Below, in pieces: positions 2,926 to 50,671 of a DNA stretch of 64,000 bases. Under the pieces are notes generated by a model. It did no database searches and had not been told where the DNA came from. It saw only the letters and a program-made list of their open reading frames with translations. Position 1 is the stretch's first letter; each line of letters starts with the position of its first letter. Source of the DNA: Candidatus Woykebacteria bacterium (GTDB lineage Bacteria > Patescibacteriota > Microgenomatia > Woykebacterales > RBG-16-39-9b); the NCBI GenBank assembly GCA_040876345.1, contig JBBDPM010000006.1, positions 264,547-328,546 of the forward strand, given 5' to 3'. A program made the position numbers and the translations under genes.

Positions 2926-3234
2926 ATGGCTAAAAATCTTACTGAGTTAAAAACAGAGCTCAAAGACAGGGAAAGATTAGAACAGTGTGCTCGGCAATTC
3001 GGTGTGGTGGGTGACCTTACTCGCCTAAAAATCTGCTATACCCTTTGCCACTACCCAGAGCTTTCGGTAAATGAAATATCTAAGGCGGTCGGTGTGTCTC
3101 CGTCAGCTGTATCTCATGCCTTAGCAAAGCTATTTGATATACAACTTGTCAAGAAGAGGAAAGAAGCCCAAACAGTTTATTACTCGCTGAAAAGCAACAA
3201 GTTCACAAATAATTTGAAGGATTTAATTGTATAG
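2926..3234 (+). CDS. ArsR/SmtB-family metalloregulatory transcriptional repressor
   Basis: HTH region LTRLKICYTLCHYPELSVNEISKAVGVSPSAVSHALAKL is typical of ArsR/SmtB winged-helix repressors. Sits at the head of the mer gene cluster. Confidence 0.8.
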   Translation: MAKNLTELKTELKDRERLEQCARQFGVVGDLTRLKICYTLCHYPELSVNEISKAVGVSPSAVSHALAKLFDIQLVKKRKEAQTVYYSLKSNKFTNNLKDLIV

Positions 3235-3640
3235 AATAGATATGAGAAGCATTGTCAGGAACCTACAAACTATTCTTTTACCTATACTGGGAGCGGGAGC
3301 AGTCGGAGCTTGCCCACTCTGCTGGATAGGTTCTGCTTCGCTTTTAACCTACCTGGGCCTCGGAGCCCTTATCCCAATTTGGAGACAATTAGCTTTTGCT
3401 ACGCTGGCTATAGCGGGGATAGGCTTTCTCTTGGATTTTCGTAGTCACAAAAATATTATACCTTTAGTACTTATCGTCGTAGGCGGGGGCCTTTTGTACT
3501 TAGGACGTTATGTTTATGGAGGAGTAGATTTTACTGGCTGGCCTATCTGGGGATTAGGAGGTGTTCTTGTCGTTGCCGCTGTAATTTATAATAAACGTCT
3601 TTTTAAAAAACAAAAGGAGCACGGTCATGCAACAATTTGA
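3227..3640 (+). CDS. Membrane protein with a GACPLC motif in TM1; putative metal (mercury) transport/binding component
   Basis: 137 aa, about 4 TM helices, Cys pair VGACPLCWIG inside the first helix. Its stop overlaps the merA start (translational coupling). Confidence 0.55.
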   Translation: MYRIDMRSIVRNLQTILLPILGAGAVGACPLCWIGSASLLTYLGLGALIPIWRQLAFATLAIAGIGFLLDFRSHKNIIPLVLIVVGGGLLYLGRYVYGGVDFTGWPIWGLGGVLVVAAVIYNKRLFKKQKEHGHATI

Positions 3641-5027
3641 TTTAATAGTTCTCGGTGGTGGAGCGGGAGCCTTTGCTGCTGCCATTGCTGCCAATGAGGC
3701 AGGTACGAAGGTAGCGATGGTCAACGCGGGGCTTCCCCTTGGTGGCACTTGTGTCAATGTTGGCTGTGTTCCTAGTAAAACCCTCCTAAAAATTGGTGAG
3801 ATTGCTTATTACGGCAATCACGGCTTTGACGCTATTTCGGGAAAGCTAGAAGTAAATTTTGAAAAAGCGATTGAACATGAGTTAAATATAGTCGAGAAAA
3901 TGAGGCACGATAAATATTCAGAAGTTCTCTCTAATCTCGAAAATGTCACGCACTTTGAAGGAAAGGCAAAATTTGTTTCCAAAAATGAAATTGAGGTAAA
4001 CGGTCAGCGACTTTGCGGAGACAAGTTTGTAATAGCCACAGGTTCCACAGCTTTACCGACTCCCTTAGAAGGTTTAGACAAAGTTGATTACATCACCCAC
4101 ATAGACGCTCTTAAACTTAAAAAACTCCCCAAATCGATGGTGATTATTGGTGCAGGCCCGCTTGGACTAGAGTTTGGGCAGATGTACCATCATTTTGGAA
4201 CAAAGGTCACAATTCTCCAAAGAGGCCCTACAGTGATGGCGAGGACAGAACCAGAGTTATCAGAAGCACTACAAAAATACCTTGAAGATGAAGGAGTTAG
4301 CATTTTCACCAACGCCAACAGTAAAAAGGTAAGGAAGGAAAACGGAGAAAAAGTTGTAACTTTTGAGGTCGATGGTAGGGAGATGGAAGCTAAAGGTGAA
4401 ATTCTAATGTTTGCGGCAGGAAAGACACCAAACACTAAAGAGCTTGATTTAGACAAAGTTGGAGTTGAAGTAAATCAAAAAGGAGCAATTAAGGTGGGAG
4501 ATAACCTGCAAACTACCGCACCACATGTTTGGGCGGTTGGAGATGTAGTTGATAGACCTTTAAGACTCGAAACCACTGCTGGTAAGGAAGGCAAAATTGC
4601 TACCGAAAACGCTCTTGGCGGAAAGAAAAGAAAAATGGATTACTCCGCCGTTCCTTATGCGGTCTTTACTACTCCAAACCTTGCAGGTGTTGGTAAAACA
4701 GATGCAGAGGCTGTTAGCGGAGGTTCAAGATGCACCTGTAATACTTTAGGTTTTGATATGGTTCCCAAAGCAGCGATTATCAACGATACGAGAGGTTTAA
4801 TAAAGATTGTGGCAGAAAGAGAAAGCCACAAAATTATTGGTATTCATATCCTTGGACCAGAGGCTGCCGACCTTATCCACGAAGCGACAATGATTGTACG
4901 AAATAAAATGACGCTGGAAGACGTGATAGATACAGTACATGTATTCCCGACTCTAAGTGAAGTAATAAAACTGGCAGCCCAAAACTTCTTTAGAGACGTA
5001 TCCAAACTTTCTTGTTGTGTGGAGTAA
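3627..5027 (+). CDS. merA: Mercuric reductase MerA (core enzyme, no N-terminal HMA domain)
   Basis: FAD GxGxxG motif LIVLGGGAGAFAAA. Redox-active site GGTCVNVGCVPSK as in MerA. C-terminal vicinal cysteines ...KLSCCVE, the MerA hallmark that separates it from lipoamide dehydrogenase. Confidence 0.8.
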   Translation: MQQFDLIVLGGGAGAFAAAIAANEAGTKVAMVNAGLPLGGTCVNVGCVPSKTLLKIGEIAYYGNHGFDAISGKLEVNFEKAIEHELNIVEKMRHDKYSEVLSNLENVTHFEGKAKFVSKNEIEVNGQRLCGDKFVIATGSTALPTPLEGLDKVDYITHIDALKLKKLPKSMVIIGAGPLGLEFGQMYHHFGTKVTILQRGPTVMARTEPELSEALQKYLEDEGVSIFTNANSKKVRKENGEKVVTFEVDGREMEAKGEILMFAAGKTPNTKELDLDKVGVEVNQKGAIKVGDNLQTTAPHVWAVGDVVDRPLRLETTAGKEGKIATENALGGKKRKMDYSAVPYAVFTTPNLAGVGKTDAEAVSGGSRCTCNTLGFDMVPKAAIINDTRGLIKIVAERESHKIIGIHILGPEAADLIHEATMIVRNKMTLEDVIDTVHVFPTLSEVIKLAAQNFFRDVSKLSCCVE

Positions 5028-5306: not shown

Positions 5307-5576
5307 ATGAAAAGGTTTTTGGTAGGAGTTGCCGCCAGTGCGGCGATGTTTGCAAGTTTAGCCACGCCAGTTTTTGCAAACCCATCTTCAGCACCTGGTG
5401 CTGGGGATGCTACTGATATAGCCAATGTAGCTACAGGCGAAAATCCGCCTCTTGGAGCTAGTGGCACAGGCGGACTACTGAACAACGAGGCTGGCAATCC
5501 AGCTATTGGTTCAGTATTTGCCAAAATCATTGAGCACAACCCACTGTGTGACATACACGATGATAGCACTCACTAG
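5307..5576 (+). CDS. Small secreted protein (89 aa) with a signal peptide
   Basis: Strong SD (GGGAGGTGA) 8 nt upstream. Signal peptide MKRFLVGVAASAAMFASLATPVFA followed by a Gly/Ala/Pro-rich region. Local GC is higher than the genome background. Confidence 0.45.
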   Translation: MKRFLVGVAASAAMFASLATPVFANPSSAPGAGDATDIANVATGENPPLGASGTGGLLNNEAGNPAIGSVFAKIIEHNPLCDIHDDSTH

Positions 5577-5622
5577 CGATTGTGGCTCACCTGCCCTCTG
5601 CCCTGCCTTCGGTTAAATAAAC

Positions 5623-6168
5623 ATGAGGAATGCATTTTTGATAATGGTAAGCGTCTCTATAGTCATAGCGATTGTCGGTGCCATTGCCCTATCTAGTAAT
5701 CAACCAGGATTAACTGGTTCAAACAGTGCAAGCAATTCTGGTACGGAGGTCGGTAATCGAACACCAGATTTTACTTTGACAGACATTGAAAAGAGAAAAA
5801 TCTCTCTTGATGGACTTACGGGCAAACCCGCAATTATTTGGTTTACGGCAAGCTACTGTGTGCCTTGTCAAATCGGTGCGAAAGAAGTCAGGAGACTCGA
5901 TGAAGACCTCGGTGGAGATAAATTTAATGTCTTAATGGTCTTTATCGACCCACGGGAGACCGAAAAGGATTTAAGAGATTGGCAAGACTCTTTCGGTAGT
6001 AAAGATTGGCTCATTGCTTTTGCGAACAAAGAAATTACAGATAGTTACGAGATTAGATTTTTAGACACCCAATATCTTTTGGACAAAGAGGGGATTATTC
6101 GAAACTTAGCCAACAGCCCAGTTGGTTACGAAGCTTATAAAAGTAAAATTGAGGAGCTCCTGCAATAA
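5623..6168 (+). CDS. Membrane-anchored TlpA/ResA-like thiol:disulfide oxidoreductase (thioredoxin fold)
   Basis: N-terminal TM anchor. Thioredoxin CxxC active site in the context IIWFTASYCVPCQIGAKEV. Confidence 0.8.
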   Translation: MRNAFLIMVSVSIVIAIVGAIALSSNQPGLTGSNSASNSGTEVGNRTPDFTLTDIEKRKISLDGLTGKPAIIWFTASYCVPCQIGAKEVRRLDEDLGGDKFNVLMVFIDPRETEKDLRDWQDSFGSKDWLIAFANKEITDSYEIRFLDTQYLLDKEGIIRNLANSPVGYEAYKSKIEELLQ

Positions 6169-11603: not shown

Positions 11604-12095
11604 ATGATTCTGCCACTATCTAAACTCTACTCTGGACCTAGAAAAAAGCGCAATGGGTTCACCCTACTTGAGCTGTTAATAGTAGTTGCCATAATCGCTA
11701 TATTAACATCTATTGGGATTTTTGCCTTGAGGAACGCACAAAGAAACGCTCGGGATAGCAAAAGACAACAAGATCTCAATCAACTTAAAGTTTCCCTAGA
11801 GCAGTATTTTGAAACTACCATACCTCATCAATACCCGTCTAGCACTGCCGGAAAAATTAATTGTGGTGGAGCTCTGGATTGGGGTACCTCTCCATTCACC
11901 TGTAATAATAAGACTTACATGAAGCAGTTACCAAATGATCCTGTTGGGGGGAGAAATTATTGTTACGATTCCACCGGCAGTACGTTCTCACTCTACACTA
12001 ACGTGGAGAATCTGCGTACTCCCGGGATTTTGAGCCCAGCGGTTGCTTGCAATGGATCTACAACCTACAATTACAGAGTTCAAGGCGAGAAATAG
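11604..12095 (+). CDS. Type IV pilin/pseudopilin (prepilin-type N-terminal cleavage/methylation domain)
   Basis: Class III signal KRNG|FTLLELLIVVAIIAIL with G-1, F+1, E+5. Confidence 0.8.
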   Translation: MILPLSKLYSGPRKKRNGFTLLELLIVVAIIAILTSIGIFALRNAQRNARDSKRQQDLNQLKVSLEQYFETTIPHQYPSSTAGKINCGGALDWGTSPFTCNNKTYMKQLPNDPVGGRNYCYDSTGSTFSLYTNVENLRTPGILSPAVACNGSTTYNYRVQGEK

Positions 12096-12133
12096 GTTTG
12101 ACAAGTATTATTTGCTAATCTATATTTAAACTA

Positions 12134-12883
12134 ATGTCCAACTTCAAGAAATTTCAAATATCAAGGCGTGGTTTTACTCTTATCGAGATCCTGATTGCTC
12201 TTGCAATAATTGCCATTCTCCTCACGGTCGGTATCCTTTCTTTTAGAAATGCCCTGCGCCAAGGTAGAGACTCAGAAAAGAAAGCTACGATTAAAGAAGT
12301 CCAATCCGCCCTTGAAGCATATTATGCAGATCATGGGCGTTATCCTATTCACAATAATCCTCCTACCACTCCTGATGATGCTGCAGCAAGTGATTACGGG
12401 GCCTGCGACCCTTCAAGTACTTCGCAATGTTTGGTTGCTACAAACACTATGGAAGTAGATTTCAATAGAGGGCATAATAACTACCAGACAAAAGTTGCGA
12501 AATCTTTCGACGACGCTATTGAGCCTTATTTAGCTGGCGGTCTTCCCGATGCACCCATGGGACCTTTCCAAGGTAACACATATACCAGTGGTTGGAGTTG
12601 GACAGGTTATTTGTATACCTCGAGGGTAGAAGTGTCACCAGGGGTTTGGAGCACAGATGGTAGTACTTACCGGCTTGGTACTTGGCTTGAGAATAACGGT
12701 AGCGGTGGGGGTACTGCCGATCCAGATATAAATAATCCAGTAGGATTTACCCCACCAGGAAACAATGGATCCCAAGCAAGAGCTGGTTTATGTTGTGGTG
12801 GGAACGGACCTGCCGTCTGCAATAAATTTCAATGGGGATGCCTAACAAATTATTTTGTCGGCCCACCCACAGAAGGTTTTTGA
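12134..12883 (+). CDS. Type IV pilin (249 aa)
   Basis: RRG|FTLIEILIALAIIAIL prepilin leader with a hydrophobic N-terminal helix. Confidence 0.8.
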   Translation: MSNFKKFQISRRGFTLIEILIALAIIAILLTVGILSFRNALRQGRDSEKKATIKEVQSALEAYYADHGRYPIHNNPPTTPDDAAASDYGACDPSSTSQCLVATNTMEVDFNRGHNNYQTKVAKSFDDAIEPYLAGGLPDAPMGPFQGNTYTSGWSWTGYLYTSRVEVSPGVWSTDGSTYRLGTWLENNGSGGGTADPDINNPVGFTPPGNNGSQARAGLCCGGNGPAVCNKFQWGCLTNYFVGPPTEGF

Positions 12884-12886
12884 TCA

Positions 12887-13444
12887 ATGATGTTTAATCG
12901 AAAGTCTTATGGTTTCACCTTAATAGAGCTTCTAATTGTGATTGTAATTATTGCGGTTTTAGTCACGATTACTGCCTCGTCCTATCGAGAAGCTCAGGAG
13001 AGCAGCCGAGATTCTAAAAGAAAATCTGATTTGGCAAAATTGGAAGCAGCCCTAGAAAGATTTTATAGTGATAACAATAAATACCCAAACGACAATGGAG
13101 TTGGAGGCCTAATCGTTTGTCCGGATGGAACTGCATTAACTTGGGGTGAGGACCATGCGTTTCAATGTACAATTGGTGGCAGCGATAAAGTTTATATGAA
13201 TGAGATGCCTAAGGATCCAAGAGACTCACGAGGTTATTTCTATAACGCAACCGACATAAACAATAACCCTTGTGATAATAATGATACAAATTCTGGCAAT
13301 GATTGTTTTAAATACATAATCTCTGCGCAAATTGAAGATGCACAAGATAAGGACGTTATCAACCTTACAGGATGTAGTCCCCAAACCGGAGCAACTCCTA
13401 CCTACAACTACTGTGTCCCTCGGGGTCAGAGAAAACAAGTATAG
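12887..13444 (+). CDS. Type IV pilin (185 aa)
   Basis: SYG|FTLIELLIVIVIIAVL. Third gene of a tandem array. Confidence 0.8.
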   Translation: MMFNRKSYGFTLIELLIVIVIIAVLVTITASSYREAQESSRDSKRKSDLAKLEAALERFYSDNNKYPNDNGVGGLIVCPDGTALTWGEDHAFQCTIGGSDKVYMNEMPKDPRDSRGYFYNATDINNNPCDNNDTNSGNDCFKYIISAQIEDAQDKDVINLTGCSPQTGATPTYNYCVPRGQRKQV

Positions 13445-15635: not shown

Positions 15636-17324
15636 CTACATACTTTCAGGCGCGGAGACTCCAACAAGGTTTAGCGTGTTGCGAAGAACTATTTTTGTGG
15701 CTAATATTAGATTCAAGCGAGCCTTAGCAATATCTTCCTTCTCACCTATCACTCTATAACTCTCATAATACTTATGGAACATTTCTGCTAGTTCAACTAA
15801 GTAAGTGGTAAATTGATTTACTGCTAAGCTCTCGGACAAATCTTCAACTAAATCAGGAAGTTTTAGGAGTTTTTTCGCGAGTGCTAATTCTTGAGGCTGT
15901 CTTAGCAAAGATAAGTCCGCTCCGATAAACTTTTCGTGGCTAAAACCTTCCTCTTTCGCCTTTTTCAAAATGTTACTCACCCGAGCGTAGGCATATTGGA
16001 CATAATATACTGGATTGGATTCATTCCTCTTCTTTGCAAGTTCGAGGTCAAAATCCATATGGGTACTTGGCGAGTGTGAAAGGAGGAAAAATCTAAATGC
16101 GTCACGACCAACCTCATCGATCACCTCACCTGCAGTTATGAAATTCCCCGCCCTTTTGGACATACTAACTATATCTTTACCTTTCTTTACCCTAACATAT
16201 TGATATAAAATTACTTTAAACTTTTTTTCTTCAAATCCAAGAGCTTTTACTGCTGCTCGAAGACGTGGGACGTGCCCGTGGTGATTACTACCTAAAACGT
16301 CTACGACTAAGTCTGGCTTGTTTTCAAACTTCAGCTCATGAAAGGCTATATCATCGGCAAAATACGTGTAGCGTTCATCTGAGCGGCGCAGAACTGCCTC
16401 TTTATCCTTCACTGGATGATGCTCAAGTGCAAACCATAATGCGTCGTCTTTTTCCTTTGTTAACCCTTTTGAAGAAAGGTATTTAACAACTTTTTCTGTT
16501 CTACCAGATTTTTGAAGATCACTCTCATGTTGAATTTTATCAAACCTAATTCCCATACTTTTTATATCAACCAAAATTTCCTCGAAAATTAACTTTATCG
16601 CCGTCTCTCTAATCTCATCTAAACTTTTTCCAGAAAGATTATTCAGCCTTGCCGCAAGATCGTTATAAAATTCCCCCTGATACTGATCCATTACCACTTC
16701 ACCGTCAATCATTCCCTTTAAATTCTCCGCGAATACATCAACCTGGGTGCCTAAATTATTATCGTAATATTCCCGAATAACTTGATATCCAGAAGCTGAA
16801 AGGACATTAGCTATCGTATCTCCCAAAGGGCCTCCCCTTGCATTACCAATGTGTAGTGGTCCAGTCGGATTTGCCGATATGAACTCGACGCTTGCTTTTT
16901 TACCTTTATTAATCTCGTTTTCTCCGAAAGACTCATCTTCCTTAATTATTTTTTGGATATTATTCGTTATTGTAGAGGGTTCTATGTAGAAGTTTACGAA
17001 TCCAGGTTCGACAAAATCTACTTTTGAAAACTCCTCAAATTTTTCCGCTTTAGCTATAAATTTTTTAGCACACTCTAGCTTTGAGTGTTTATCCTGAGCT
17101 TTTTCCAGCTTCATTACAACATTAGTCGAATAATCACCAAACTTAACATTGGAAGATTCTCTAACTTCATAGGAGACTTTAGGAAATTTTTCCTCTTTTA
17201 AAACTTGTTCGATTGTCTTCTTGACTGTATTCCTAATCATTTTGTTTATTAGTATAACATCCTTGACCGTCGGTAACAATTTCAACTGTCCCATCTTGAT
17301 CAGTTCGGTAAATTTCCGTATCAA
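15636..17324 (-). CDS. argS: Arginine--tRNA ligase
   Basis: Class I HIGH (PTGPLHIGNARGG) and KMSKS-like (SMSKRAGNFI) motifs with ArgRS N- and C-terminal domains. The track start is TTG. An internal ATG (MGQLK.. or MIRNTVKK..) is probably the real start. Confidence 0.9.
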   Translation of the reverse strand: MIRKFTELIKMGQLKLLPTVKDVILINKMIRNTVKKTIEQVLKEEKFPKVSYEVRESSNVKFGDYSTNVVMKLEKAQDKHSKLECAKKFIAKAEKFEEFSKVDFVEPGFVNFYIEPSTITNNIQKIIKEDESFGENEINKGKKASVEFISANPTGPLHIGNARGGPLGDTIANVLSASGYQVIREYYDNNLGTQVDVFAENLKGMIDGEVVMDQYQGEFYNDLAARLNNLSGKSLDEIRETAIKLIFEEILVDIKSMGIRFDKIQHESDLQKSGRTEKVVKYLSSKGLTKEKDDALWFALEHHPVKDKEAVLRRSDERYTYFADDIAFHELKFENKPDLVVDVLGSNHHGHVPRLRAAVKALGFEEKKFKVILYQYVRVKKGKDIVSMSKRAGNFITAGEVIDEVGRDAFRFFLLSHSPSTHMDFDLELAKKRNESNPVYYVQYAYARVSNILKKAKEEGFSHEKFIGADLSLLRQPQELALAKKLLKLPDLVEDLSESLAVNQFTTYLVELAEMFHKYYESYRVIGEKEDIAKARLNLILATKIVLRNTLNLVGVSAPESM

Positions 17325-18378
17325 TTGAGGCTAATAAATTTAGTAGGTCCTTGTGAGGATGCCCATATCTATTTTTTTTACCTACTGATATTACCACGAC
17401 TTCTGGCGAAAGTTTCTCAGCATAGTCTTTTCTTAAGGCAGTCTCCGATCCGTTGTGAGGAATTTTCAGAAACTCAATATCCGAAACTGAACATGAATAA
17501 AATTTTACTTGCTTATCGTCATCCCCATTTATTAATCCTTCGGGATCTTCCGGTAAATCTTTTTTAACACCAAGAAGAACCCCAGAAAGAAGAGGTGCTT
17601 GGGCTCGGGTAATAAATTTGTTTATTTTATCCTCAACCTTTTTCTTGTGAATAAAGAAAAGTTTGGAGGCTGCTTACTCTTGTAATCTTTTCGATCTTAG
17701 GGTAAATGATTAAACCAGTTTCATTAGCAACTCCATCAACTCTAACAACATCACCATATGATATATTTGGATACTTTTTAATTATAATTTGATAGTCATT
17801 TAATTTGAAATAAATTTGTTCGCTGGCCCTTCTTGACTCCTTCGATACTTTTCCCTCAGTTATAACATTTCCTACTTTTAATTGCGTTCGAGGAATAAAG
17901 TGATACCTAATTGCTACTAAACCGGCTGCGATCAGAATGCTGGATAAATAAAGCGGTAAACTCTTACTGTACAATAACCAGATCCTTGACTCCCTTAAAA
18001 AAGTTTTTGGCCCTAAAACTTTTTTGGTCAGTAAATCATCTACTGAAAGGTATGGACGATCCTCAACCATCTTTTGATCTGTAACTGGCCCGATCTTTGG
18101 CAGAGTGTCAAGATTAGATAAAGAAGCGTTGTTAATGTTTACTTTTCCAGAGACTTTTGATTATGCACCTTGCGAATTACCGGCACTTGTGCCAGAAGAT
18201 ACGAGCTCACCAACCGTTGGAACGTATATTTTTGCACCGTCATTAACAACTTGAGCAAGGTTTAAGTTCTTCGCAACCCAATTATCAGCACTCGAGAGTA
18301 CCCAAATAACTTGAGCGATTAGCGAATGGATTTGTTTACCTAGAGTGCTATAGGAAATTTTATGCGTGTTTGAGGTTT
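17238..18378 (-). pseudogene. Decayed comEA-comEC competence locus. ComEA SLBB fragment, in-frame TAA, ComEA HhH fused to the ComEC N-terminal (DUF4131-like) domain, frameshift, ComEC C-terminal MBL fragment
   Basis: Minus-strand translation gives ...DNWVAKNLNLAQVVNDGAKIYVPTVGELV (ComEA SLBB-like), then TAA (+18161-18163). Next comes SKVSGKVNINNASLSNLDTLPKIGPVTDQKMVEDRPYLSVDDLLTKKVLGPKTF (ComEA HhH) running into the 145-aa ORF 17633-18070 (ComEC N-terminal OB/TM region). In another frame (about 17238-17680) is ...LKIPHNGSETAL...VISVGKKNRYGHPHKDLLNLL, the conserved C-terminal end of the ComEC beta-lactamase domain. The central competence channel domain is absent. Confidence 0.5.
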
Positions 18379-18432
18379 AGGAGCGCAAAGCGCTTTTAAT
18401 AATTTAAGATCAACAAGGTGGGACACTAAACC

Positions 18433-18828
18433 TTAATCTTTTATTGACCTTTTATACTTGGGAACCCAGGATTTATAGAAATCTACTAGATGATCCAAAC
18501 CCCGAGACCGGAGTTCCTTATCAATCACCCCTCCGCGATGAGGATAGCGATGCATTCGAGGGTTTTCTGAAGAGAAACCTTGGGTATAATGCACAAGTTC
18601 ATGGGCAAGAGTGTGATCTATTACTTCGGCTGGGAACTTTGAGTTGCTAAACCTCCCATTAATCGTAATGTAACTAATCTTTTTTTTAAGATCAAGACGA
18701 ATTGAACCAAATCGATAAATTGCTTCTCTGCCAAACCTTATTACGATTGGGTTGGTTCTCTTGACATCAGAGAAGTAATTTCGCCAAATTTTATTCAAAC
18801 GCGATTCAAGCCAATAGTTATCACGCAC
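18433..18828 (-). CDS. Putative zinc metallopeptidase (SprT/DUF45-like, HExxH)
   Basis: HTLAHELVHYTQGF...H motif near the C-terminus. Small, 131 aa. Confidence 0.5.
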   Translation of the reverse strand: MRDNYWLESRLNKIWRNYFSDVKRTNPIVIRFGREAIYRFGSIRLDLKKKISYITINGRFSNSKFPAEVIDHTLAHELVHYTQGFSSENPRMHRYPHRGGVIDKELRSRGLDHLVDFYKSWVPKYKRSIKD

Positions 18829-18888
18829 TAAAATAACTCCTTGTCTAATTTGGGTGGTAAAAACCTTCTAGAAACTAGTGGAAAGTGG

Positions 18889-21429
18889 TTAACCACCAGT
18901 AACTAGATTGAGTAGCCTGCCTTCGATCCAGATAGATTTCTTGATCTGTCCTTTTTTAGTGTAAACTTTTACTTTTGGTCGGTCAAGGGCCAAGCGAGCG
19001 ACATCTTCCTTAGATATACCTTTAGGAGCCTCTAATTTGTCTCTGAAACGTCCATTAACTTGGATGACTATTGTTACTTTATCTTCTTCCAAAAATTTGG
19101 TCTTGTAACTTGGCCAAAGTTGGTGGTGAACCGAAAACTTTTCTCCTAAAACTTCCCATAATTCTTCTGATATGTGTGGTGCCAAGGGGGAAAGAAGTAA
19201 AACAAACTTCTTGGCTAATTCTTTGTTTAACTCATCTTTCTTCTCGTTCATCATGTTCAAGAACTCCATCATTGCAGCAATCGCCGTGTTAAACTTTAGG
19301 TTTTCCAAATCCTCACCAACCTTTTTAATCAAAAGGTTAAGCGCCCTTTCCATTTCAAGGCTGGGCGTTGCAGTCGAAGTATTGTCGGCAATCTCTTGAA
19401 CTAAAGACCATACCCGATTCAAGAACCGATAAACTCCGGCAATTGCGCGATCCGAAAAGTCCCCACCTTGTTCATAAGGACCTAAAAATAACAAATAGAT
19501 TCTAAGTGTATCAGCACCGTAAGAGTCCATAAACTCATTGGGATTCACTACATTACCGCGCGACTTGCTCATCTTGGCTCCTTCGTGAATAACCAAACCG
19601 TGAGCTCGAAACTTTTTAAATGGCTCTTCAAAATCTAAATAGCCAATATCATGCAGCGCCATGGTTATGAATCTCGCGTAGAGCAAATGAAGAACCGCGT
19701 GTTCGTTACCACCTATGTAAGAATCAACTGGTAACCACTTCTTCGTAATATCGGAATCAAATGGGACTTGTCCTGAGCGAGCGGAGCGAGTCGAAGGATA
19801 GCGGAGGAAATACCAAGACGAATCTAAAAATGTGTCGGACACATCAGTTTCGCGTTTCGCCAAACTTCCACATTCTGGGCATTTTACGCTCAAAAACTCT
19901 GGCACAGTGGCAAGTGGGCTGACACCGGTTCCTTTGGGTTGGTAGTTCTTTAGATACGGGAGTTCTACTGGCAAATCTTTCTCAGGTACCGGAAACCAGC
20001 CAGTCATATCTTTGTTGGCTGATTTGCCATCTTTAGCACATTTATCGCAGAAAATCATCGGAATCGGCGGTCCCCAATAGCGCTGGCGAGAAATCAACCA
20101 ATCACGCAGATGATAATTAACTGTTCTTTTACCCAACTGATTTTCTTCGATATATTCTGATATCTTTTTTATTCCTTCTTTAGAATCCAAACCATCAAAT
20201 TCCCCAGAATTCACTAACTTCCCTTCGCCAATATAAGCTTCTTTCGAAACGTCTCCACCAATTATCACTTCGACTATTTCTAGATTATATTTTTTTGCAA
20301 ATTCATAGTCACGAGAATCGTGCGCCGGGACAGCCATTATGGCACCAGTTCCGTAGCTTCCGAGGACATAATCGGCTACCCAAACGGGTATTTCTTTTTT
20401 ATTTCCTGAGTTTATTGCAAATACTTCTGTAAAAACTCCAGTCTTTTCTCTTTTTTCAGCTGTTCTATCCTGCTGATCAACCTTTAGTGATTTAGTAATG
20501 TAATCAGCTACTTCTTTTGGAGCTTTCCAACCAAGATCTATCCAACTTTTTGCAACTTCTGGAGATACAACCACAAATGTGGCGCCAAACAAAGTGTCCG
20601 CTCTTGTGGTAAATACCTCAACTAAATGTTTCTTATCTTCCTGCCTTGGTACTTCAAGGCTAAATTTTATTTGCAACCCCTCGCTCTTACCAATCCAATT
20701 CTTCTGCATAGTTTTGGTGGTTTCTGACCAATCTATTTTGTCTAGATTGCTCAATAACTTTTCAGCGTAGTCGGTGGTTTTAAGAAACCACTGCTCAAGT
20801 TCTTTTTCGATGACTTGGCTTTGGCAACGCTCACATTTACCCCCTATCACCTGCTCATCAGCAAGAACGGTTTTGCAGGATGGGCACCAGTCCACTGGTG
20901 CTTTTTTACGTACGGCAAGGCCAGCCTTGAATAGCTGAATAAACAGCCATTGAGTCCATTTGTAATAGTTTGGTTGTGAAGTGATCACTTCATGATCCCA
21001 GTCAAAGAGAGCGCCAAGCCTTTTCATTTGCCTCTCGCGGAAATAAGACGTTGTTTCTTGTATCAATTCTCTTGGGTGCTTGCCCACTTTAATTGCGTAG
21101 TTTTCTGAGTGAATTCCAAAGCTATCAAATCCCATCGGCTCAAACACGTTGTAACCCTGCATGCGCTTGAGACGACCAAAAGTATCTGCTCCACCAAAAG
21201 CGTAGACGTGACCGACGTGCAAACCCTCTCCTGAGGGGTACGGAAACATCATAAGATTGAAGAAGGGTCGTTCGGCTTTCTTGATATCGACTCTGAACGT
21301 TCCATCTCTATCCCACCTTTCCTGCCACTTAGCCTCAATTGTCTTAGCGTCATATCTTTTCATCTCTGGGGATGATTCTACCAAACTAAATGTCTTTAGC
21401 AAAGCTATAAATTTGTTACCTTTTACCAA
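18889..21429 (-). CDS. leuS: Leucine--tRNA ligase
   Basis: HIGH motif PYPSGEGLHVGHVYAFGGAD, KMSKS motif KMSKSRGNVV, plus editing and anticodon-binding regions. 846 aa. Confidence 0.95.
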   Translation of the reverse strand: MVKGNKFIALLKTFSLVESSPEMKRYDAKTIEAKWQERWDRDGTFRVDIKKAERPFFNLMMFPYPSGEGLHVGHVYAFGGADTFGRLKRMQGYNVFEPMGFDSFGIHSENYAIKVGKHPRELIQETTSYFRERQMKRLGALFDWDHEVITSQPNYYKWTQWLFIQLFKAGLAVRKKAPVDWCPSCKTVLADEQVIGGKCERCQSQVIEKELEQWFLKTTDYAEKLLSNLDKIDWSETTKTMQKNWIGKSEGLQIKFSLEVPRQEDKKHLVEVFTTRADTLFGATFVVVSPEVAKSWIDLGWKAPKEVADYITKSLKVDQQDRTAEKREKTGVFTEVFAINSGNKKEIPVWVADYVLGSYGTGAIMAVPAHDSRDYEFAKKYNLEIVEVIIGGDVSKEAYIGEGKLVNSGEFDGLDSKEGIKKISEYIEENQLGKRTVNYHLRDWLISRQRYWGPPIPMIFCDKCAKDGKSANKDMTGWFPVPEKDLPVELPYLKNYQPKGTGVSPLATVPEFLSVKCPECGSLAKRETDVSDTFLDSSWYFLRYPSTRSARSGQVPFDSDITKKWLPVDSYIGGNEHAVLHLLYARFITMALHDIGYLDFEEPFKKFRAHGLVIHEGAKMSKSRGNVVNPNEFMDSYGADTLRIYLLFLGPYEQGGDFSDRAIAGVYRFLNRVWSLVQEIADNTSTATPSLEMERALNLLIKKVGEDLENLKFNTAIAAMMEFLNMMNEKKDELNKELAKKFVLLLSPLAPHISEELWEVLGEKFSVHHQLWPSYKTKFLEEDKVTIVIQVNGRFRDKLEAPKGISKEDVARLALDRPKVKVYTKKGQIKKSIWIEGRLLNLVTGG

Positions 21430-21844: not shown

Positions 21845-24800
21845 ATGGAAGACAACCTGCCCAAAGTTGATCTCGCCTTGGGCGAGATTTTTTCGAAATA
21901 TAGGGATTACCTAAAATCCTCCGGGTACTCCAATCCCACTGTAAAGAACTATTTGTCGGATCTTCGCCATCTTATCGCTTGGATTAATGAGCGCTATTCC
22001 GGCTTTTCCTTTGTCTTTCTTACTCTCCCCTCAGTTCGGGCCTACCGAAGTTTTGTTAAGGAAAAATTTCGCTCTAAACCATCAATCTCGGCTCGCCGCC
22101 TCTCATCCCTTCGCAAATTCCTCTCCTGGGCTGGCAATTTAAAATATGTTCCAGAAGATCTAGTAAAAGCGACTGAATATATTCTTTCCGACAAAGAGGC
22201 ACCGACTACTCTACCCCAACCTCAAATAATCTTCCAAGGACCATCAACTGAGCTTAAGGACGAAACCAAAACTCCTCCAGTGCCAGATAAAATACATCAA
22301 AAGCACCATATCAAATACACTCGCCCACTCTGGTATCAGCGTTACCACGAGCACCCTGCTCACCGCGTAATCCACTTCTCCATACTGGGAGTGTTCCTGT
22401 TACTACTTGCAAACCTAATGTTTGGTCAACTCATAGGCGACTTGCTAAAAAGAGAAACTGCGCCGGATCTTGGTAATGTTTTGGCCGCGACTCCACCGAG
22501 GATTCTTTCTTTTCAAGGAAGACTAACAGATGAAAATGATGTACCGGTTTCGACGGCTACCAACATTGTCTTCAGAATATGGGACGACGATCTTGATAGT
22601 ACGGAGGTTGATTGTGATGGCGGCGGTGACGAAGATTGTATGTGGAAGAGTAAAACCTGGTCAGTTACACCAGATCAAAATGGTATCTTTTCTGTCTTAC
22701 TAGGTGATACAAGTCAGTCGGATACCACCATACCGGCTTCTCTATTCTCCGATAATGCTTCACTTTGGCTTGGGGTAAAGGTTGAATCCGACTCAGAAAT
22801 GACTCCTCGCCAACGCATCGCCTCCTCCACTTACGCTCTCAATGCTGATGCGCTTGATGGAGTCGATTCGGTATCATTCCTTCGCTCTGATGCATCGGAC
22901 AACTACACCTCCGGCACCCTTACCATAGATGACGGCACTACCTTTGCCGTCAACTCAACCACAATCGGCATTGGCAATGCTTCTTCAGACGCGGCCACGA
23001 TTAACGCTACCTCTACCTTTAACACTGATGTTAACCTAAGTTTAGCGTCAACTGAAGATTTGGTAATTACAAATACCAACTGGGCACCCGCATCAGGCAT
23101 AGGATTAGTTGATGTCAACGCTACCTCCTCCACCAACGACGCTCGTGGTGTTGACAATTATTTTGATTTAAACAGTACTGGCAGTGTTACTCAATACGGG
23201 TACTATGGAAATTTTGATGCTACCAGCGTAGCCTTGGCCGACGATACCACTTCAAACTACTACGGTATCTACCAGACTGTCAGTAAAACTGGTACCGATA
23301 CGGCCGCAACAACTGCCACAACAACTGGCACCTACGGGATAAGAGCCTCAGCTTCAAACACTTCAGGTACAAATGACGCGGAAATTACCAGGAAAACGTA
23401 TGGAGGCTACTTTTCAGCTGAAAATAACGGAACCGGGAACGGTCAAGCTTATGGGATTTACTCAACGGTGTCTGGAAATGATGACTCATCAGAATCGGAC
23501 TTCGCCTACGCCGGCTACTTCAACGGGGCTCTGAACACAACCTACAACGTTGGTGTGGCTTCCGGTACTGGCTGTTATATTAACATTTGCGACGCCGTGA
23601 CTTCAAACCCTACCGACATCGCCGGCCAAGGCTTCTTTGGAGCCGGCAGGCTAACTGCATTCTCTGCAAAAGTTGATATAAACCACTCATTTACCACTGA
23701 CAGCGCCATTGGTTTGTTAGTCAATACCGGTACTAAAACTTCCGGAACCGTTACCAATAACTATGGTATTAAAGTTGAAAACCAGACCTACGGCAGCACC
23801 GATTATGGTCTTTATATTGCTGGTGCGGAAGATTATGCAATTTACACGGCTGCTGATGACATCAAATTTGTCCAAGCAGCTGCCGACTCCCTAACTATTG
23901 ACGCTGGCACAACGGACAAGACCCAAGACGCAATTTCCCTTGATGTTGATGTTAATAGCACAAATGTAGCTGGAATGTTTGTTGACCTGGATGTTGGTAC
24001 TGCCCTATCTTCTGGAGAAATTGCCGATGGACTCAAAGTAGACGTTGCCGGTAATGCATCGGATAATGCCGCTGCAGCTGTTAATGGTCTTCGCTTGAAA
24101 GGTGCAACTGCCTCTGGAGCTCCTGTAACCGGAGTCAACATTGAAACAGCTTTTGACGTTGATATAGATCTTCAAAATGATGAACAAATACTAAATACTG
24201 CCGATGACGAGATTGAATTCCAATGTGCGCCAGCTGGCAGCTGTACTGCATCTAATGACTTAAGGTTTGACTTAGACGGTACCAATCCTGTCATTGATTC
24301 GCCTACGGACACAATAATACAGATAAACGATACTCTGATGATTGATCTAGCTGGTAACGCTAGTGATGAGGCCATCTGTGGAGACAATGCTGAGGATGAT
24401 ACGACGGATGTTATGGTAAACGATTGTACCACTGGTTCTACTGAAGATTACGCCGAATTCTACTCAGTTGAGCCCAATACAACGTACGGCCATATTGTTT
24501 CTGCTGGAGATGAGTATATTACAACAACTAAGCATAAACTAGATCCGCAAACTCACACTTTCGTCAAATTAGTCAAAGCTCAAAAAGGCAGTAACCGCAC
24601 TATGATTGGGATAGTTAGTAATAACTACAGCGATTTTAGTGTTACAGGTGACAGGATAAAGCCAGAAGACAACCCCTTTCCTATCGCTCTAAATGGGCGA
24701 GTGCCAGTATTTGTAACCGATGAAAATGGATCAATCGAAGTCGGGGACCGAATAACTTCTTCTTCAACTCCGGGTGTGGGTATGAAGGTTGATGATCAAA

Positions 24801-25363
24801 CCGAACAAACGATTGGTATTGCTCTTTCTGCTTTCGATGAGCGTGGTCAGGGTAGCATTATTGTATTTGTAAATATCGGTTGGAATTTTATTGATCTTGA
24901 CCAAGAAACCCGAATAAAAAACCAGATAACCGAATACCTAACCGGTATCGACCATTTGAATATGAAAAACCTTAAAGCTGAAACCATAAGCATTGGCGAA
25001 AACAAAATTTCGCTGGACGATGAAGGTAATTTAAGAGTTGATGGAAATCTTGTTGCAAAGGGTGATGTAAAAATTGAGGGTAACTTAACTTTAGACGGAA
25101 GTTTTTCAGCTAAAGAGATCAAAACGGAAAAATTGGGCTTGGGTGAAAAATCAACTGGAACGGCAACTCTACGCAAAGGAGAAACAAGGGTTGAAATTGA
25201 AGCATCGGAAATATCCGAAAACTCGTTGGTTTTTATCACCCCAACCTCAAGAACTTATGATGTGCTAACAGTGATTGAGAAAAAGCCTGGGGAGGGCTTT
25301 GTCGTTGAAGATTACTTCCCCGCTGAAGAAGACATCCACTTCAACTGGTTCTTTGTAAATTAG
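21845..25363 (+). CDS. Giant membrane-anchored surface protein (1172 aa): cytoplasmic XerD/integrase SAM-like N-domain, single TM, S/T/G/D-rich ectodomain, conserved C-terminal module
   Basis: The N-terminus (PTVKNYLSDLRHLIAWINERY...LSSLRKFLSWAG) matches the phage-integrase N-terminal SAM-like core-binding fold. TM is HFSILGVFLLLLANLMFG. The C-terminal module (PIALNGRVPVFVTDENGSIEVGDRITSSSTPGVGMKV...IVFVNIGW, then ENKISLDDEGNLRVDGNLVAKGDVKIEGNLTLDG) is shared with the 1730-aa protein and with the c-subunit fusion protein. Confidence 0.8.
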   Translation: MEDNLPKVDLALGEIFSKYRDYLKSSGYSNPTVKNYLSDLRHLIAWINERYSGFSFVFLTLPSVRAYRSFVKEKFRSKPSISARRLSSLRKFLSWAGNLKYVPEDLVKATEYILSDKEAPTTLPQPQIIFQGPSTELKDETKTPPVPDKIHQKHHIKYTRPLWYQRYHEHPAHRVIHFSILGVFLLLLANLMFGQLIGDLLKRETAPDLGNVLAATPPRILSFQGRLTDENDVPVSTATNIVFRIWDDDLDSTEVDCDGGGDEDCMWKSKTWSVTPDQNGIFSVLLGDTSQSDTTIPASLFSDNASLWLGVKVESDSEMTPRQRIASSTYALNADALDGVDSVSFLRSDASDNYTSGTLTIDDGTTFAVNSTTIGIGNASSDAATINATSTFNTDVNLSLASTEDLVITNTNWAPASGIGLVDVNATSSTNDARGVDNYFDLNSTGSVTQYGYYGNFDATSVALADDTTSNYYGIYQTVSKTGTDTAATTATTTGTYGIRASASNTSGTNDAEITRKTYGGYFSAENNGTGNGQAYGIYSTVSGNDDSSESDFAYAGYFNGALNTTYNVGVASGTGCYINICDAVTSNPTDIAGQGFFGAGRLTAFSAKVDINHSFTTDSAIGLLVNTGTKTSGTVTNNYGIKVENQTYGSTDYGLYIAGAEDYAIYTAADDIKFVQAAADSLTIDAGTTDKTQDAISLDVDVNSTNVAGMFVDLDVGTALSSGEIADGLKVDVAGNASDNAAAAVNGLRLKGATASGAPVTGVNIETAFDVDIDLQNDEQILNTADDEIEFQCAPAGSCTASNDLRFDLDGTNPVIDSPTDTIIQINDTLMIDLAGNASDEAICGDNAEDDTTDVMVNDCTTGSTEDYAEFYSVEPNTTYGHIVSAGDEYITTTKHKLDPQTHTFVKLVKAQKGSNRTMIGIVSNNYSDFSVTGDRIKPEDNPFPIALNGRVPVFVTDENGSIEVGDRITSSSTPGVGMKVDDQTEQTIGIALSAFDERGQGSIIVFVNIGWNFIDLDQETRIKNQITEYLTGIDHLNMKNLKAETISIGENKISLDDEGNLRVDGNLVAKGDVKIEGNLTLDGSFSAKEIKTEKLGLGEKSTGTATLRKGETRVEIEASEISENSLVFITPTSRTYDVLTVIEKKPGEGFVVEDYFPAEEDIHFNWFFVN

Positions 25364-49192: not shown

Positions 49193-50548
49193 TTATATCT
49201 TTCTCTTCAACCTGCGAAGGAACACACCGGCTGGTGCTATACCACCAAGAAGTAGTAACAACGCTCCAGGACCAGTATTTGGAAGCTCTTTGATCTTACT
49301 AAGCACTTTACCAACTTGCTTGTTCCCAAATCGAACTTCAGAAAGCTCTTTGGCTTTAACTTCAACTTTAACGTTATTGTCGGTAGTGATTCTCCAACCA
49401 GCTGGGACTATTTCGGACACTCTGTAAGTTCCAGGCTCAAGGTCACGAATTATAACTACGCCATCACCTTCAGTGGTTACAGTTTTCTCAATTCCTTCAC
49501 CAGAGATTCTGAACTTGAATCCAGGTAGGCTGCGCTCACCATCGTTGAATGTTTTATCACCATTGCTATCTTCAAACTTGAAGATCTTTAAATGCCCACG
49601 CTCTGGCGCACCTTTCTTGACTTCTACTTTAATTTTGTTGTCACATTCAATCCAAACTGGAGTTTGATCAGATTTAATTCTAGCTGCGTTTCTGATTTCA
49701 GTTCCGTCTTTAACGTCACTTTTTACTTTAACTTTAAATTTCAAAAGACCTTTGTTAACTGTGTCTAAATCACCAACGTTAAGACCATCTTTGATCCAAG
49801 CGTCAGTTATATTAGTGTGGAAATTACCACGATCGTAAGTAGTACTACCTTTTATGTAAGTTACTTCAGAAGGAAGCACATCAAAAACTCTTACGTTATT
49901 AAGCACCATGTTACCGTTGTTGCAAAGCTCAATTGTGTAAGTAACAGTGTCTCCTGGAGAAACTGTAGATTTATCGGCTTTCTTAGCAGCACAAATACTT
50001 GGGTTTCTTAAGAACACCTTTGTCTGGGAATTCTTTTGAACTCTAGCTGTTTGATCGCTTGTAACCGAGACCGCACTCCAAATAATATTGTCATTATTGG
50101 CATTTTGAGCAACTCTGGTTTGATACTTAAGTATTACATTTGTACCTGAGAGTACCGTACCAAAGTTTACACCATCGCGAATCCATGCATCGGTTAGTGA
50201 ACGCGTAATTCCTGTAGAGGTTCTAGTGTAGGTAGTAGAACCATTTATGTAATCAGCTAAGTTCGGTTCGTTAATCCATAGGAAAACTGTAGTTAAGTCA
50301 GCTGTTCCCGTATTTTTTATTGTAAGAGTGTAATTAAGAAGGTCACCTCTGTCTGCAACCGCCTTATCAACCACATTGGTGAGCTCTATATTTGGCGCTG
50401 CGTGTACTGGTGTTGCTAATGCAAAAGTAATTGGCAATAGAGAACCAGAAAGTAGAGCAACGCTAGTTGCTCCTGCTAAAACTTTTTTAACTACTTTGTT
50501 TAATTTTTTCATAATTTTTCTTTTGGGCAGAAACCTTAAGAGGGGCAT
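49193..50548 (-). CDS. LPXTG cell-wall-anchored surface protein with DUF11-type repeats and a Cna-B/SpaA-type (prealbumin-like) domain
   Basis: Signal peptide. Two repeats of type LTIKNTGTADLTTV.../TIELCNNGNMVLNNV... Cna-B-like segment (GHLKIFKFEDSNGDKTFNDGERSLPGFKFRISGEG...LEPGTYRVSEIVPAGW). C-terminal sortase signal LPNTG plus hydrophobic segment plus RRLKRKI. Confidence 0.8.
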   Translation of the reverse strand: MPLLRFLPKRKIMKKLNKVVKKVLAGATSVALLSGSLLPITFALATPVHAAPNIELTNVVDKAVADRGDLLNYTLTIKNTGTADLTTVFLWINEPNLADYINGSTTYTRTSTGITRSLTDAWIRDGVNFGTVLSGTNVILKYQTRVAQNANNDNIIWSAVSVTSDQTARVQKNSQTKVFLRNPSICAAKKADKSTVSPGDTVTYTIELCNNGNMVLNNVRVFDVLPSEVTYIKGSTTYDRGNFHTNITDAWIKDGLNVGDLDTVNKGLLKFKVKVKSDVKDGTEIRNAARIKSDQTPVWIECDNKIKVEVKKGAPERGHLKIFKFEDSNGDKTFNDGERSLPGFKFRISGEGIEKTVTTEGDGVVIIRDLEPGTYRVSEIVPAGWRITTDNNVKVEVKAKELSEVRFGNKQVGKVLSKIKELPNTGPGALLLLLGGIAPAGVFLRRLKRKI

Positions 50549-50624
50549 GTGTCATCCTGAACTTGATTCAGGATCTCTGTTTAAGATTTGCGCACTATAA
50601 CATAAACTATGAGCCTTGTCAAGT

Positions 50625-50671
50625 CCCTCTTCGAAACTACTAACTTTTGCTACTAATTTCGAAGAGAGGGG
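50625..50671. other. Imperfect ~12-bp inverted repeat (CCCTCTTCGAAA ... TTTCGAAGAGAGGG) at the low-GC/high-GC boundary
   Basis: Read directly from the sequence. Lies between the LPXTG gene start and the 3' end of the high-GC operon. No clear poly-U tract on either strand. Confidence 0.4.

Follow-up and report, generated by a model that had tools for sequence, protein, structure and literature searches.

The window, a 64-kb stretch of DNA from a genome of Candidatus Woykebacteria (Microgenomates, Patescibacteria), carries on its minus strand, between a sprT-like gene and argS, a pseudogenised operon comprising comEA, comEC-N and a gene for a ComEC-type metallo-beta-lactamase (MBL) (Table 1). 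A sequence-only reading had proposed a decayed, fused comEA-comEC remnant at 17238-18378; synteny and alignment to seven loci (L139, L136, L052, L012, L003, L063 and L053) bear this out, although the feature extends from 17233 to about 18432. The gene order leuS-sprT-[comEA-comEC]-argS is found at a conserved position, and in four close relatives (L139, L136, L052 and L012) that position holds about 2.7 kb of intact genes encoding ComEA (~205 aa), ComEC-N (OB fold plus Competence domain, ~403 aa) and MBL (~284 aa), compared with the 1.2 kb left in the window. In these relatives MBL is a gene of its own, overlapping comEC-N in the +1 frame, rather than part of one ComEC polypeptide as had been supposed. 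The intact order leuS-sprT-comEA-comEC-N-MBL-argS(-M16-ndk-pilin) was recovered at L139/L140, L136, L052, L012, L003 and L063, and at L053 argS is directly preceded by intact comEA-comEC-N-MBL. The useful references were obtained by synteny-based locus retrieval with ArgS and by searching with the intact ComEC-N of L052; about 20 Microgenomates loci place comEA-comEC at this canonical, deeply conserved position.

Table 1. Features of the comEA/comEC-N/MBL remnant (positions in the window)
Feature	Position	Strand	Remarks
Degenerate comEA 5' region	18290..18432	-	start codon, TM anchor and first half of SLBB gone
comEA remnant, C-terminal half of SLBB and linker (..ADNWVAKNLNLAQVVNDGAKIYVPTVGELVSS..)	18164..18376	-	open frame without start codon
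In-frame TAA nonsense codon in ComEA linker	18161..18163	-	every intact ComEA has a sense residue here (E, S or T)
comEA helix-hairpin-helix DNA-binding segment (HHH_3)	17999..18160	-	PF12836, E=1e-9
T6 homopolymer indel	17997..18002	-	comEA frame shifted into overlapping comEC-N frame
Ancestral comEA 3' end with TAA stop (17966-17964)	17964..17996	-	out of frame with comEA body
Residual ORF, HhH + TM + OB	17633..18136	-	145 aa from ATG 18070; 167 aa in NCBI records
comEC-N remnant: ancestral TTG start (17974-17972), TM helix, OB fold (DUF4131-like)	17636..17974	-	
A5GG run (17643-17637) with 1-nt indel, then TGA stop (17635-17633)	17633..17643	-	
comEC-N linker and first Competence residues (..KINKFITRAQAPLLSGVLLGVKKDLPED)	17533..17646	-	read in +1 frame
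1,300-nt deletion junction	17532..17533	-	ComEC-N codon ~142 joined in frame to MBL codon ~182
MBL C-terminal remnant, ~99 codons and TAG stop	17233..17532	-	
MBL remnant end/argS start overlap, 8 nt	17233..17240	-	TAG 17235-17233; argS ATG 17240-17238

The homology of these fragments to ComEA, ComEC and MBL is far above chance. When the intact L012 proteins were compared with the window by tblastn, ComEA (6e-27) and MBL (7e-31) were each found and ComEC-N gave a split match. At the DNA level, the 1,200 nt of the remnant align with the 2,727 nt of the intact L052 locus with one 1,300-nt gap. Homology is thus combined with conserved synteny to intact genes of relatives, as expected of a pseudogene.

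The comEA part is truncated at its 5' end and interrupted internally. Its 5' region is ~200 nt shorter than in intact relatives (gaps of 193, 6 and 7 nt in the alignment to L052) and has stops in frame at 18412, 18406 and 18379, and alignment of the remnant with the 204-213-aa ComEA proteins of L139 and L052 starts no earlier than residue ~94-100. Residues 1 to ~93, which would include the anchor or signal, are deleted or degenerate, leaving no intact ORF and no start codon; as first read, the SLBB-like frame, open from 18376, contains no ATG, GTG or TTG, and the in-frame TAA is present. The fragment upstream of this TAA is 46-67% identical to the ComEA of relatives by tblastn; it gave no Pfam match to SLBB (PF10531), whereas the ComEA of L012 matches at 1e-12. 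The NCBIfam comE model TIGR01259 spans the TAA (E=4e-11), and downstream of it the ComEA HhH is recognised by HHH_3 over positions 4-57 of 65. Overall, the ComEA remnant is 62-71% identical to the ComEA of L136, L139 and L052. The HhH then runs straight into the N-terminal TM and OB segment of ComEC, as had been described for the 145-aa ORF (17633-18070). This apparent fusion arises because the indel in the T6 run shifts the frame: one frame there gives GPKTF and the other KGVKDLVIVQ followed by a stop, compared with GPKTFEGVKDLVSVN and a stop in L052, so that the second of these frames still preserves the ancestral ComEA C-terminus.

The comEC-N remnant begins at a TTG with the same 11-nt comEA/comEC-N overlap as in L052 and L053, and shares 36-52% identity with the first 144 aa of intact ComEC-N proteins of 403-406 aa. 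Removal of one base at the A5GG run yields a single collinear alignment with residues 7-147 of the L052 ComEC-N (one HSP, E=2e-26); the scores are 2e-26 against P0082 and 3e-43 against P0190. The OB fold of the DUF4131 type is identified by collinearity with residues 2-144 of intact ComEC-N; DUF4131 itself gave no direct Pfam match in this segment, and matches P0082 only weakly (0.005). Pfam run on the raw fragments detected HHH_3 only, and because the OB and MBL-tail fragments are too short for it, NCBIfam and alignments with orthologues were used for the rest. When the concatenated remnant was used in a word-based search of proteins, the matches were partial only, to stand-alone MBLs and to ComEA. 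The Competence channel (PF03772) is absent from the window by Pfam, alignment and tblastn, whereas in relatives it is found at E values of about 1e-47 to 1e-57. Lactamase_B, too, is recognised by Pfam in relatives and absent from the window.

Downstream, the +1 frame had been read as only the last ~115 aa of the MBL domain, with the channel and the first half of MBL missing. The MBL C-terminus is there (TIGR00361 positions 597-663 of 663, E=1.6e-10) and the channel is gone, but the first ~38 homologous codons of this frame (17646-17533) belong to ComEC-N, namely the linker that follows the OB domain and LLSGVLLG, where the Competence domain starts; MBL accounts for the following ~99 codons, so that ~64% of the MBL gene is missing and the last ~35% is kept. 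Because the +1 frame begins with ComEC-N, the A5GG frameshift and the large deletion are separate events. The junction reads as a hybrid D-(F>P)-E motif, and in both L139 and L052 the two D-F-E motifs lie exactly 1300 nt apart. The deletion takes the whole PF03772 domain and the HxHxDH region of MBL. The remaining tail is 50-57% identical to residues ~186-284 of intact MBL proteins, and its conserved HHGS reads HNGS (17457-17452), the HH being present in all six comparators; with the HxHxDH region deleted as well, the metal-binding motif set is incomplete. The tail overlaps the start of argS, as had been noted, by 8 nt, compared with 4 nt for the intact MBL gene in L012 and L052. A TTGTTA-17-TATACT match lies upstream of argS (17279-17251) and is a hint only; the promoter and terminator scan of 17000-18950 returned no more sites than shuffled sequence, and an Rfam scan of the window found two tRNAs and nothing else.

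We consider the locus, at a probability of roughly 90%, to be the non-functional remnant of a three-gene DNA-uptake operon at its ancestral position, destroyed by at least five independent lesions. With ~200 nt lost from its 5' end, comEA would be left without a start codon or membrane anchor and with only half of its SLBB domain; the TAA would truncate what remained within the ComEA linker; the T6 indel would make the reading of comEA continue in the frame of comEC-N, which it overlaps; a further 1-nt indel in the A5GG run would break comEC-N after the OB domain; and the 1,300-nt deletion, for which slippage or illegitimate recombination between the two short D-F-E-coding motifs is the probable origin, would have cost the locus its entire membrane channel and the catalytic two-thirds of MBL. 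The remnant probably persists as a transcribed spacer in the co-directional leuS-sprT-argS array, its last MBL codons perhaps being retained because of the overlap with the argS start, and the leftover ORFs of 145/167 aa and ~53-54 aa are presumably without function. Measured against outgroups, the divergence of the remnants exceeds that of the intact L052 segments by only a few percent; as they are barely more diverged than intact orthologues, inactivation appears to have been evolutionarily fairly recent. Taken alone, the conservation of the remnants (62-71% in the ComEA part, 50-57% in the MBL tail) could also indicate residual constraint.

As judged from the genes that remain, the organism would be unable to move DNA across the cytoplasmic membrane via ComEC, and ComEC-mediated DNA import has very probably been lost in this Woykebacteria lineage. 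It is unlikely, though it is the alternative we take most seriously, that the locus is a pseudogene yet DNA uptake has been kept, with intact comEA and comEC elsewhere in the genome and the remnant a redundant copy. The window covers 64 kb, whereas the contig from which it comes is at least 586 kb long, and the type IV pilin genes and radA in the window are intact. Against such a copy, the remnant occupies the canonical position shared by the ~20 Microgenomates loci, and, one strain excepted, genes with the Competence domain are single copy in the bacteria surveyed (PMC6299819). Moreover, tblastn with the intact relatives found no second ComEC-like sequence within the window, and searches of a protein database that includes the proteins of this MAG turned up no near-identical intact ComEA, ComEC or MBL.

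The same locus has decayed separately at L056, L070 and L071. In the window and L070 nearly the same interval has been removed, that is, the channel and the catalytic part of MBL, while the OB domain and the MBL tail remain. A loss shared by the window and L056 is not favoured: ArgS places L052, whose locus is intact, together with L056, and the window, L052 and L056 lie at about equal distances from one another. An unexplained spacer of ~470 nt at L056 gave no Rfam match. That comEA-comEC decay in Microgenomates is recurrent and convergent rather than sporadic seems to us improbable; if it were so, positive selection could have acted to close DNA entry through ComEC, or against truncated channel fragments, in some episymbionts. 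An alternative, likewise improbable, is that the HhH-TM-OB ORF left in the window has acquired a new function in DNA binding.

Still less probable is the proposal that the fused ORFs form a naturally short, functional ComEA-ComEC derivative kept by selection, one possibility being a DNA-binding protein made of HhH and OB and anchored in the membrane, alongside a small MBL-tail protein. The 145/167-aa ORF is open, with a nearly complete HHH_3, a TM helix and an OB fold; the OB segment and the MBL tail are independently kept in L070, and an MBL-tail ORF of ~53 aa in both L071 and the window; and the remnants show little excess divergence. However, when 1.84 billion cluster representatives were searched exhaustively with HMMER, the architecture appeared only in the window's own ORFs (P0029 and P0033), so that no homologue shares it or spans the junctions and the short fusion family that would have argued against decay did not appear. 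The breakpoints in L070 are unlike those in the window, and the same MBL tail is itself degraded in L056; the tail has none of the HxHxDH metal ligands and its HHGS is mutated. On the known topology of ComEA and ComEC, moreover, an HhH with no upstream signal or anchor would face the opposite side of the membrane from the HhH of ComEA.

Base for base, three NCBI MAG records, whose proteins include the remnant ORF, and three Logan run assemblies carry the same stop, frameshifts and deletions; the sequence is 100% identical in the Logan contigs of SRR27977662, SRR27977658 and SRR27977663 and in GCA_040881185.1. It is therefore not an assembly error, contrary to the caution attached to the sequence-only reading, and the locus was disabled by several independent lesions, which recur from assembly to assembly. 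Although two lesions (T6 and A5GG) lie in homopolymer runs, which are typical error sites, and all three Logan assemblies break at 18289-18325, near the comEA 5' breakpoint, the chance that the lesions are assembly or sequencing errors and that the genes are intact in the organism is close to nil, given this identity across records and independent assemblies, the TAA, missing comEA 5' end and channel-removing 1,300-nt deletion that would be left after homopolymer correction, and the substituted residue in a conserved catalytic motif. The breaks could reflect an alternative allele in the population; a repeat search around the locus offered no explanation for them. Recoding by an alternative genetic code or programmed frameshifting was also rejected: if TGA is read as sense, a TAA follows two codons on, and the corrected frame would still be without the channel domain. 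To our knowledge, TAA is a stop in all bacterial genetic codes.

The decay of the operon in the window is ordinary gene decay and nothing new in kind. The loss had been called notable; it is real but only mildly notable, because ComEC is detected in 86% of CPR genomes and so not in all (PMC6744442), is reported as single copy in every surveyed strain except one (PMC6299819), and is dispensable for growth: in a cultured Saccharibacterium a comEC deletion is viable and comEC is not a fitness gene in Tn-seq (PMC10633639). The three separately decayed related loci temper it further. The ComEC route is often assumed to be near-universal in Patescibacteria for nucleotide scavenging and gene exchange; the window and these three loci support the experimental finding that ComEC is dispensable in epibiont growth. 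Presence/absence surveys should therefore look for remnants. For annotation, the name given to the 167-aa ORF in the NCBI records, 'helix-hairpin-helix domain-containing protein', hides a pseudogene. A literature search on the assembly and run accessions found no publication.

Compared with known systems, the comEA remnant resembles the membrane-anchored SLBB and HhH DNA receptor (TIGR01259; PF10531 plus PF12836) in its recognisable C-terminal half-SLBB and full HhH and in its placement upstream of comEC as in intact loci, but differs in having no start codon, membrane anchor or first SLBB half, and in its internal TAA and 3' frameshift. In patescibacterial ComEC/Rec2, ComEC-N (OB fold plus PF03772, ~403 aa) and the MBL nuclease are encoded by separate overlapping genes, which fits Meheust et al. 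The TM and OB segment and the last ~99 MBL residues of the window are collinear with those of L139, L136, L052 and L012, and both the 11-nt comEA/comEC-N overlap and the argS overlap are kept; in contrast, 1,300 nt are absent, with all of the Competence domain and MBL residues 1 to ~182, a further frameshift is present and HHGS reads HNGS. The Competence-only short ComEC ('C' profile, Pimentel and Zhang 2018), represented by the 300-aa protein of L002-type Daviesbacteria-like loci, is likewise a shortened ComEC directly upstream of argS at the same locus; however, those loci keep PF03772 (E=6e-47) as intact ORFs, whereas the window keeps the accessory ends only. Inactivation or loss of a central DNA-import gene in a small-genome bacterium also has parallels elsewhere: comEC is interrupted by an IS in Piscirickettsia salmonis (PMC12955456), and genes with the Competence domain are absent from Buchnera, Rickettsia and Mycoplasma (PMC6299819). 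Unlike these cases, the operon in the window decayed through deletion, nonsense mutation and frameshift rather than IS insertion, and it did so in a group that is otherwise enriched in ComEC (86% of genomes).

The canonical comEA-comEC locus of this Candidatus Woykebacteria contig has undergone a genuine and probably fairly recent pseudogenisation. The decayed, fused remnant described by the sequence-only reading is confirmed as an observation and supported in its interpretation by reading frames, orthologue alignments, synteny and reproducible lesions. Between the sprT-like gene and argS, the minus strand holds no long ORF. One minus-strand frame is open from 18376, lacks an ATG, GTG or TTG start, reads ..ADNWVAKNLNLAQVVNDGAKIYVPTVGELVSS.. 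and stops at a TAA (18163-18161). Past this TAA, the same frame encodes SKVSGKVNINNASLSNLDTLPKIGPVTDQKMVEDRPYLSVDDLLTKKVLGPKTF, followed by a transmembrane helix and a beta-rich domain, as far as a TGA at 17635-17633. The sequence continues in the +1 frame as KKVEDKINKFITRAQAPLLSGVLLGVKKDLPEDPEGLINGDDDKQ...KIPHNGSETAL...VISVGKKNRYGHPHKDLL...NKQND*, ending at 17233, 8 nt inside argS. The frames, the missing start, the TAA and the argS overlap thus agree with the earlier account. HHH_3 is recognised in the remnant by Pfam (E=1e-9), the NCBIfam comEA model TIGR01259 matches across the TAA (4e-11), and the +1-frame tail corresponds to the final 67 positions of the NCBIfam ComEC/Rec2 model TIGR00361 (1.6e-10). 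The ComEC N-terminal part is too divergent for a Pfam match; when one base is dropped at an A5GG run, it aligns in a single HSP with residues 7-147 of P0082, the intact ComEC-N of the related locus L052 (36% identity, E=2e-26), and is closer to another intact ComEC-N, P0190 (51%, 3e-43). The NCBI annotation of the source MAGs gives 17633-18136 as a 167-aa 'helix-hairpin-helix domain-containing protein' with no pseudogene flag and, apparently, an ATT start codon; this 167-aa version of the remnant ORF occurs in three NCBI protein records, as does ArgS.

Comparison loci were found with ArgS in GTDB genomes and JGI metagenomes, and through ComEC-N homologues. They share a conserved array, leuS - sprT-like - comEA - comEC - argS (- M16 peptidase - ndk - pilins), and in the nearest relatives the interval contains three intact genes: comEA, comEC-N and a separate gene for the ComEC-type metallo-beta-lactamase (MBL). 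The intact loci L139/L140, L136 and L052 show 57-62% ArgS and 72-80% SprT identity to the window; L012, L003, L063 and L053 are intact and more distant. Frames were compared in five loci (L052, L012, L003, L063 and L053): comEC-N lies in the +1 frame relative to comEA and overlaps its end (11 nt shared in L052 and L053), and the MBL gene in turn shares ~17-53 nt with comEC-N (ORFs as listed), again in the +1 frame. Because this arrangement is conserved across divergent genomes, the comEC-N/MBL split is not a sequencing frameshift, and the repeated overlaps indicate a natural two-gene ComEC, in accord with Meheust et al. Daviesbacteria-like loci (L002; also L001, L004-L008, L010 and L061) encode a natural ~300-aa ComEC directly upstream of argS, which comprises the Competence domain only (PF03772, 6e-47); neither an OB domain nor a nearby MBL gene was found at loci such as L002.

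Features of the window and of the comparison loci (prefixed L)
Feature	Coordinates	Strand	Description
sprT-like gene	18433-18828	minus	flanks remnant on one side
argS	15636-17240	minus	ATG at 17240; flanks remnant on other side
145-aa ORF	17633-18070	minus	residual ORF in sprT-argS interval
54-aa ORF	17233-17397	minus	residual ORF in sprT-argS interval
L056 remnant	L056:5361-5534 (within 5320-6001)		degraded 58-codon MBL tail only, between sprT and argS
L070 remnant	L070:1856-2652		ComEA N-terminal scrap, OB segment, MBL tail
L071 remnant	L071:2293-2457		53-aa MBL tail only (MBL aa 232-283)
Intact two-gene ComEC	L052:1228-3908		
Intact two-gene ComEC	L012:7369-10004		
Intact two-gene ComEC	L003:1607-4338		
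Intact two-gene ComEC	L063:3300-6004		
Intact two-gene ComEC	L053:3396-5998		
Intact two-gene ComEC	L139:2198-4836		
ComEA of relatives			203-213 aa; TM, SLBB, HHH_3
ComEC-N of relatives			400-447 aa as listed, mostly 403-411 aa; OB-type N-domain, PF03772 Competence (E about 1e-53)
MBL protein of relatives			283-293 aa; own gene
Daviesbacteria-like short ComEC	L002:9042-9944		
L071 leuS	L071:69-2237		
Three pilin-like genes	11604-13444	plus	tandem type IV, N_methyl motif, weak T2SSG and ComP_DUS similarity
radA	54527-55837		intact
Small cluster	2926-5027	plus	resembles mercury or metal resistance unit: ArsR-type regulator, MerC-like membrane protein (weak, 4e-4), pyridine-nucleotide disulfide oxidoreductase (MerA-like class, 466 aa)
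1,172-aa protein	21845-25363	plus	N-terminal phage-integrase SAM-like domain (PF02899, 6e-7), long Thr/Ser/Asp/Gly-rich remainder with no Pfam domain match; unusual pairing
Local GC peak	50001-52600		0.52 vs ~0.42 for the window; spans 407-aa ORF with prealbumin-like and CarboxypepD_reg domains
174-aa ORF	51989-52513		Arg-rich; immediately downstream of 407-aa ORF, opposite strand

The stretch between the sprT and MBL stops is 1,200 nt long in the window and 2,727 nt long in L052. The comEA 5' end is short by about 200 nt, with its start, anchor and first SLBB half lost or degenerate, and the TAA aligns with sense codons of relatives. An indel in a T6 run (18002-17997) shifts the frame, so that the comEA body reads into comEC-N and an apparent ComEA-ComEC fusion results; the old ComEA end, KGVKDLVIVQ*, is legible in the other frame at 17996-17964 (EGVKDLVSVN* in L052), and the ancestral comEC-N TTG start (17974-17972) retains the 11-nt overlap. 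A 1-nt indel in the A5GG run (17643-17637) follows the OB domain. A 1,300-nt deletion with its junction at 17533|17532 then places MBL codon ~182 directly after ComEC-N codon ~142; PF03772 is lost entirely, as is the HxHxDH region of the MBL. The window also has HNGS where six comparators invariably have HHGS. In intact relatives, a D-F-E-coding motif stands at both ends of the deleted segment (GLPxDFE in comEC-N, DYxxFEG in the MBL), with a spacing of exactly 1,300 nt in L139 and L052 alike, and the window has a single hybrid copy, DLPED-P-EGLINGDDD. The motif lies in codon phase in each of the two genes and 1300 = 1 mod 3, so the deletion yields an in-frame junction, as is seen in the window. 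Taken together, the paired motifs, the hybrid copy and the in-frame junction suggest that the deletion was likely mediated by microhomology between the D-F-E-coding motifs.

The remnants are somewhat less identical to the outgroups (L012, L003, L063 and L053) than are the intact L052 segments in 10 of 12 comparisons: 46-55% against 54-62% for ComEA, 25-34% against 30-37% for the N-domain and 50-56% against 54-60% for the MBL tail. Judged from these sequences, the genes appear to have been under selection for most of the divergence time, which would make their inactivation comparatively recent, while leaving time for five or six lesions to build up.

The sequence-only reading had named a naturally short ComEA-ComEC fusion family as an alternative. 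Against this, an HMMER search run exhaustively over 1.84 billion representatives matched only the window's own two ORFs at full length; each remaining hit was confined to the HhH segment, the N-domain or the tail of the MBL. Assembly error, which would make the stop and frameshift artefacts, is contradicted by 100% identity of the region in three separate Logan run assemblies (SRR27977662, SRR27977658 and SRR27977663) and in NCBI contig JBBEDR010000006.1 (586 kb; GCA_040881185.1, a Candidatus Woykebacteria MAG). The Logan contigs stop at 18289, 18315 and 18325, in the comEA 5' breakpoint zone, where the NCBI MAG contig is continuous; no local repeat accounting for these breaks was found, and they could reflect strain or population heterogeneity. 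Recoding fails: no bacterial code reads TAA as sense, and the frame stays broken even if TGA is taken as a sense codon.

Pseudogenisation is not confined to the window, as about four of roughly 26 loci with this neighbourhood are decayed. In L056 (SprT 74%, ArgS ~58-60%), sprT and argS are intact and comEA-comEC is almost wholly gone; the ~470 nt beyond its MBL tail contain no recognisable ORF or Rfam match. Its LeuS (916 aa) has a ~70-aa insertion relative to that of the window. The window, L052 and L056 are roughly equidistant, and a loss common to the window and L056 is not favoured, because ArgS groups L056 with L052, which is intact. The L070 and L071 remnants, on Microgenomates contigs of one metagenome, lie directly after leuS, and in both the MBL tail shares 8 nt with a convergent histidine-kinase gene, at the 3' end of the latter. 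L070 joins ComEC-N aa ~135-141 to MBL aa ~171, a central deletion similar in extent to that of the window but with different breakpoints. The L071 LeuS carries a NUDIX hydrolase insert (PF00293, E=5.7e-11, residues 177-277) between its editing and catalytic parts. At L089, a search of ~6 kb upstream of argS gave no match to ComEA, ComEC-N or MBL.

Three pilin genes and radA are still intact in the window, consistent with type IV pili that have roles besides DNA uptake. The pilin-like trio lies a few kb from the decayed locus, and L139 has the same neighbours.

The pseudogenisation described here is of an ordinary kind and modestly interesting. The earlier view that the loss is notable holds in so far as ComEC is commoner in CPR genomes (86%) than in other bacteria (51%; PMC6744442), and is weakened by precedents. 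Competence-domain genes are single copy in all surveyed strains but one, and their absences fall mainly among highly reduced symbionts (PMC6299819). Transformation of the cultured Saccharibacterium Southlakia epibionticum requires comEC, which is no fitness gene and whose deletion is viable (PMC10633639). Considering its prevalence in CPR, the absences elsewhere and this viable deletion, a loss of ComEC can be tolerated and has precedents.
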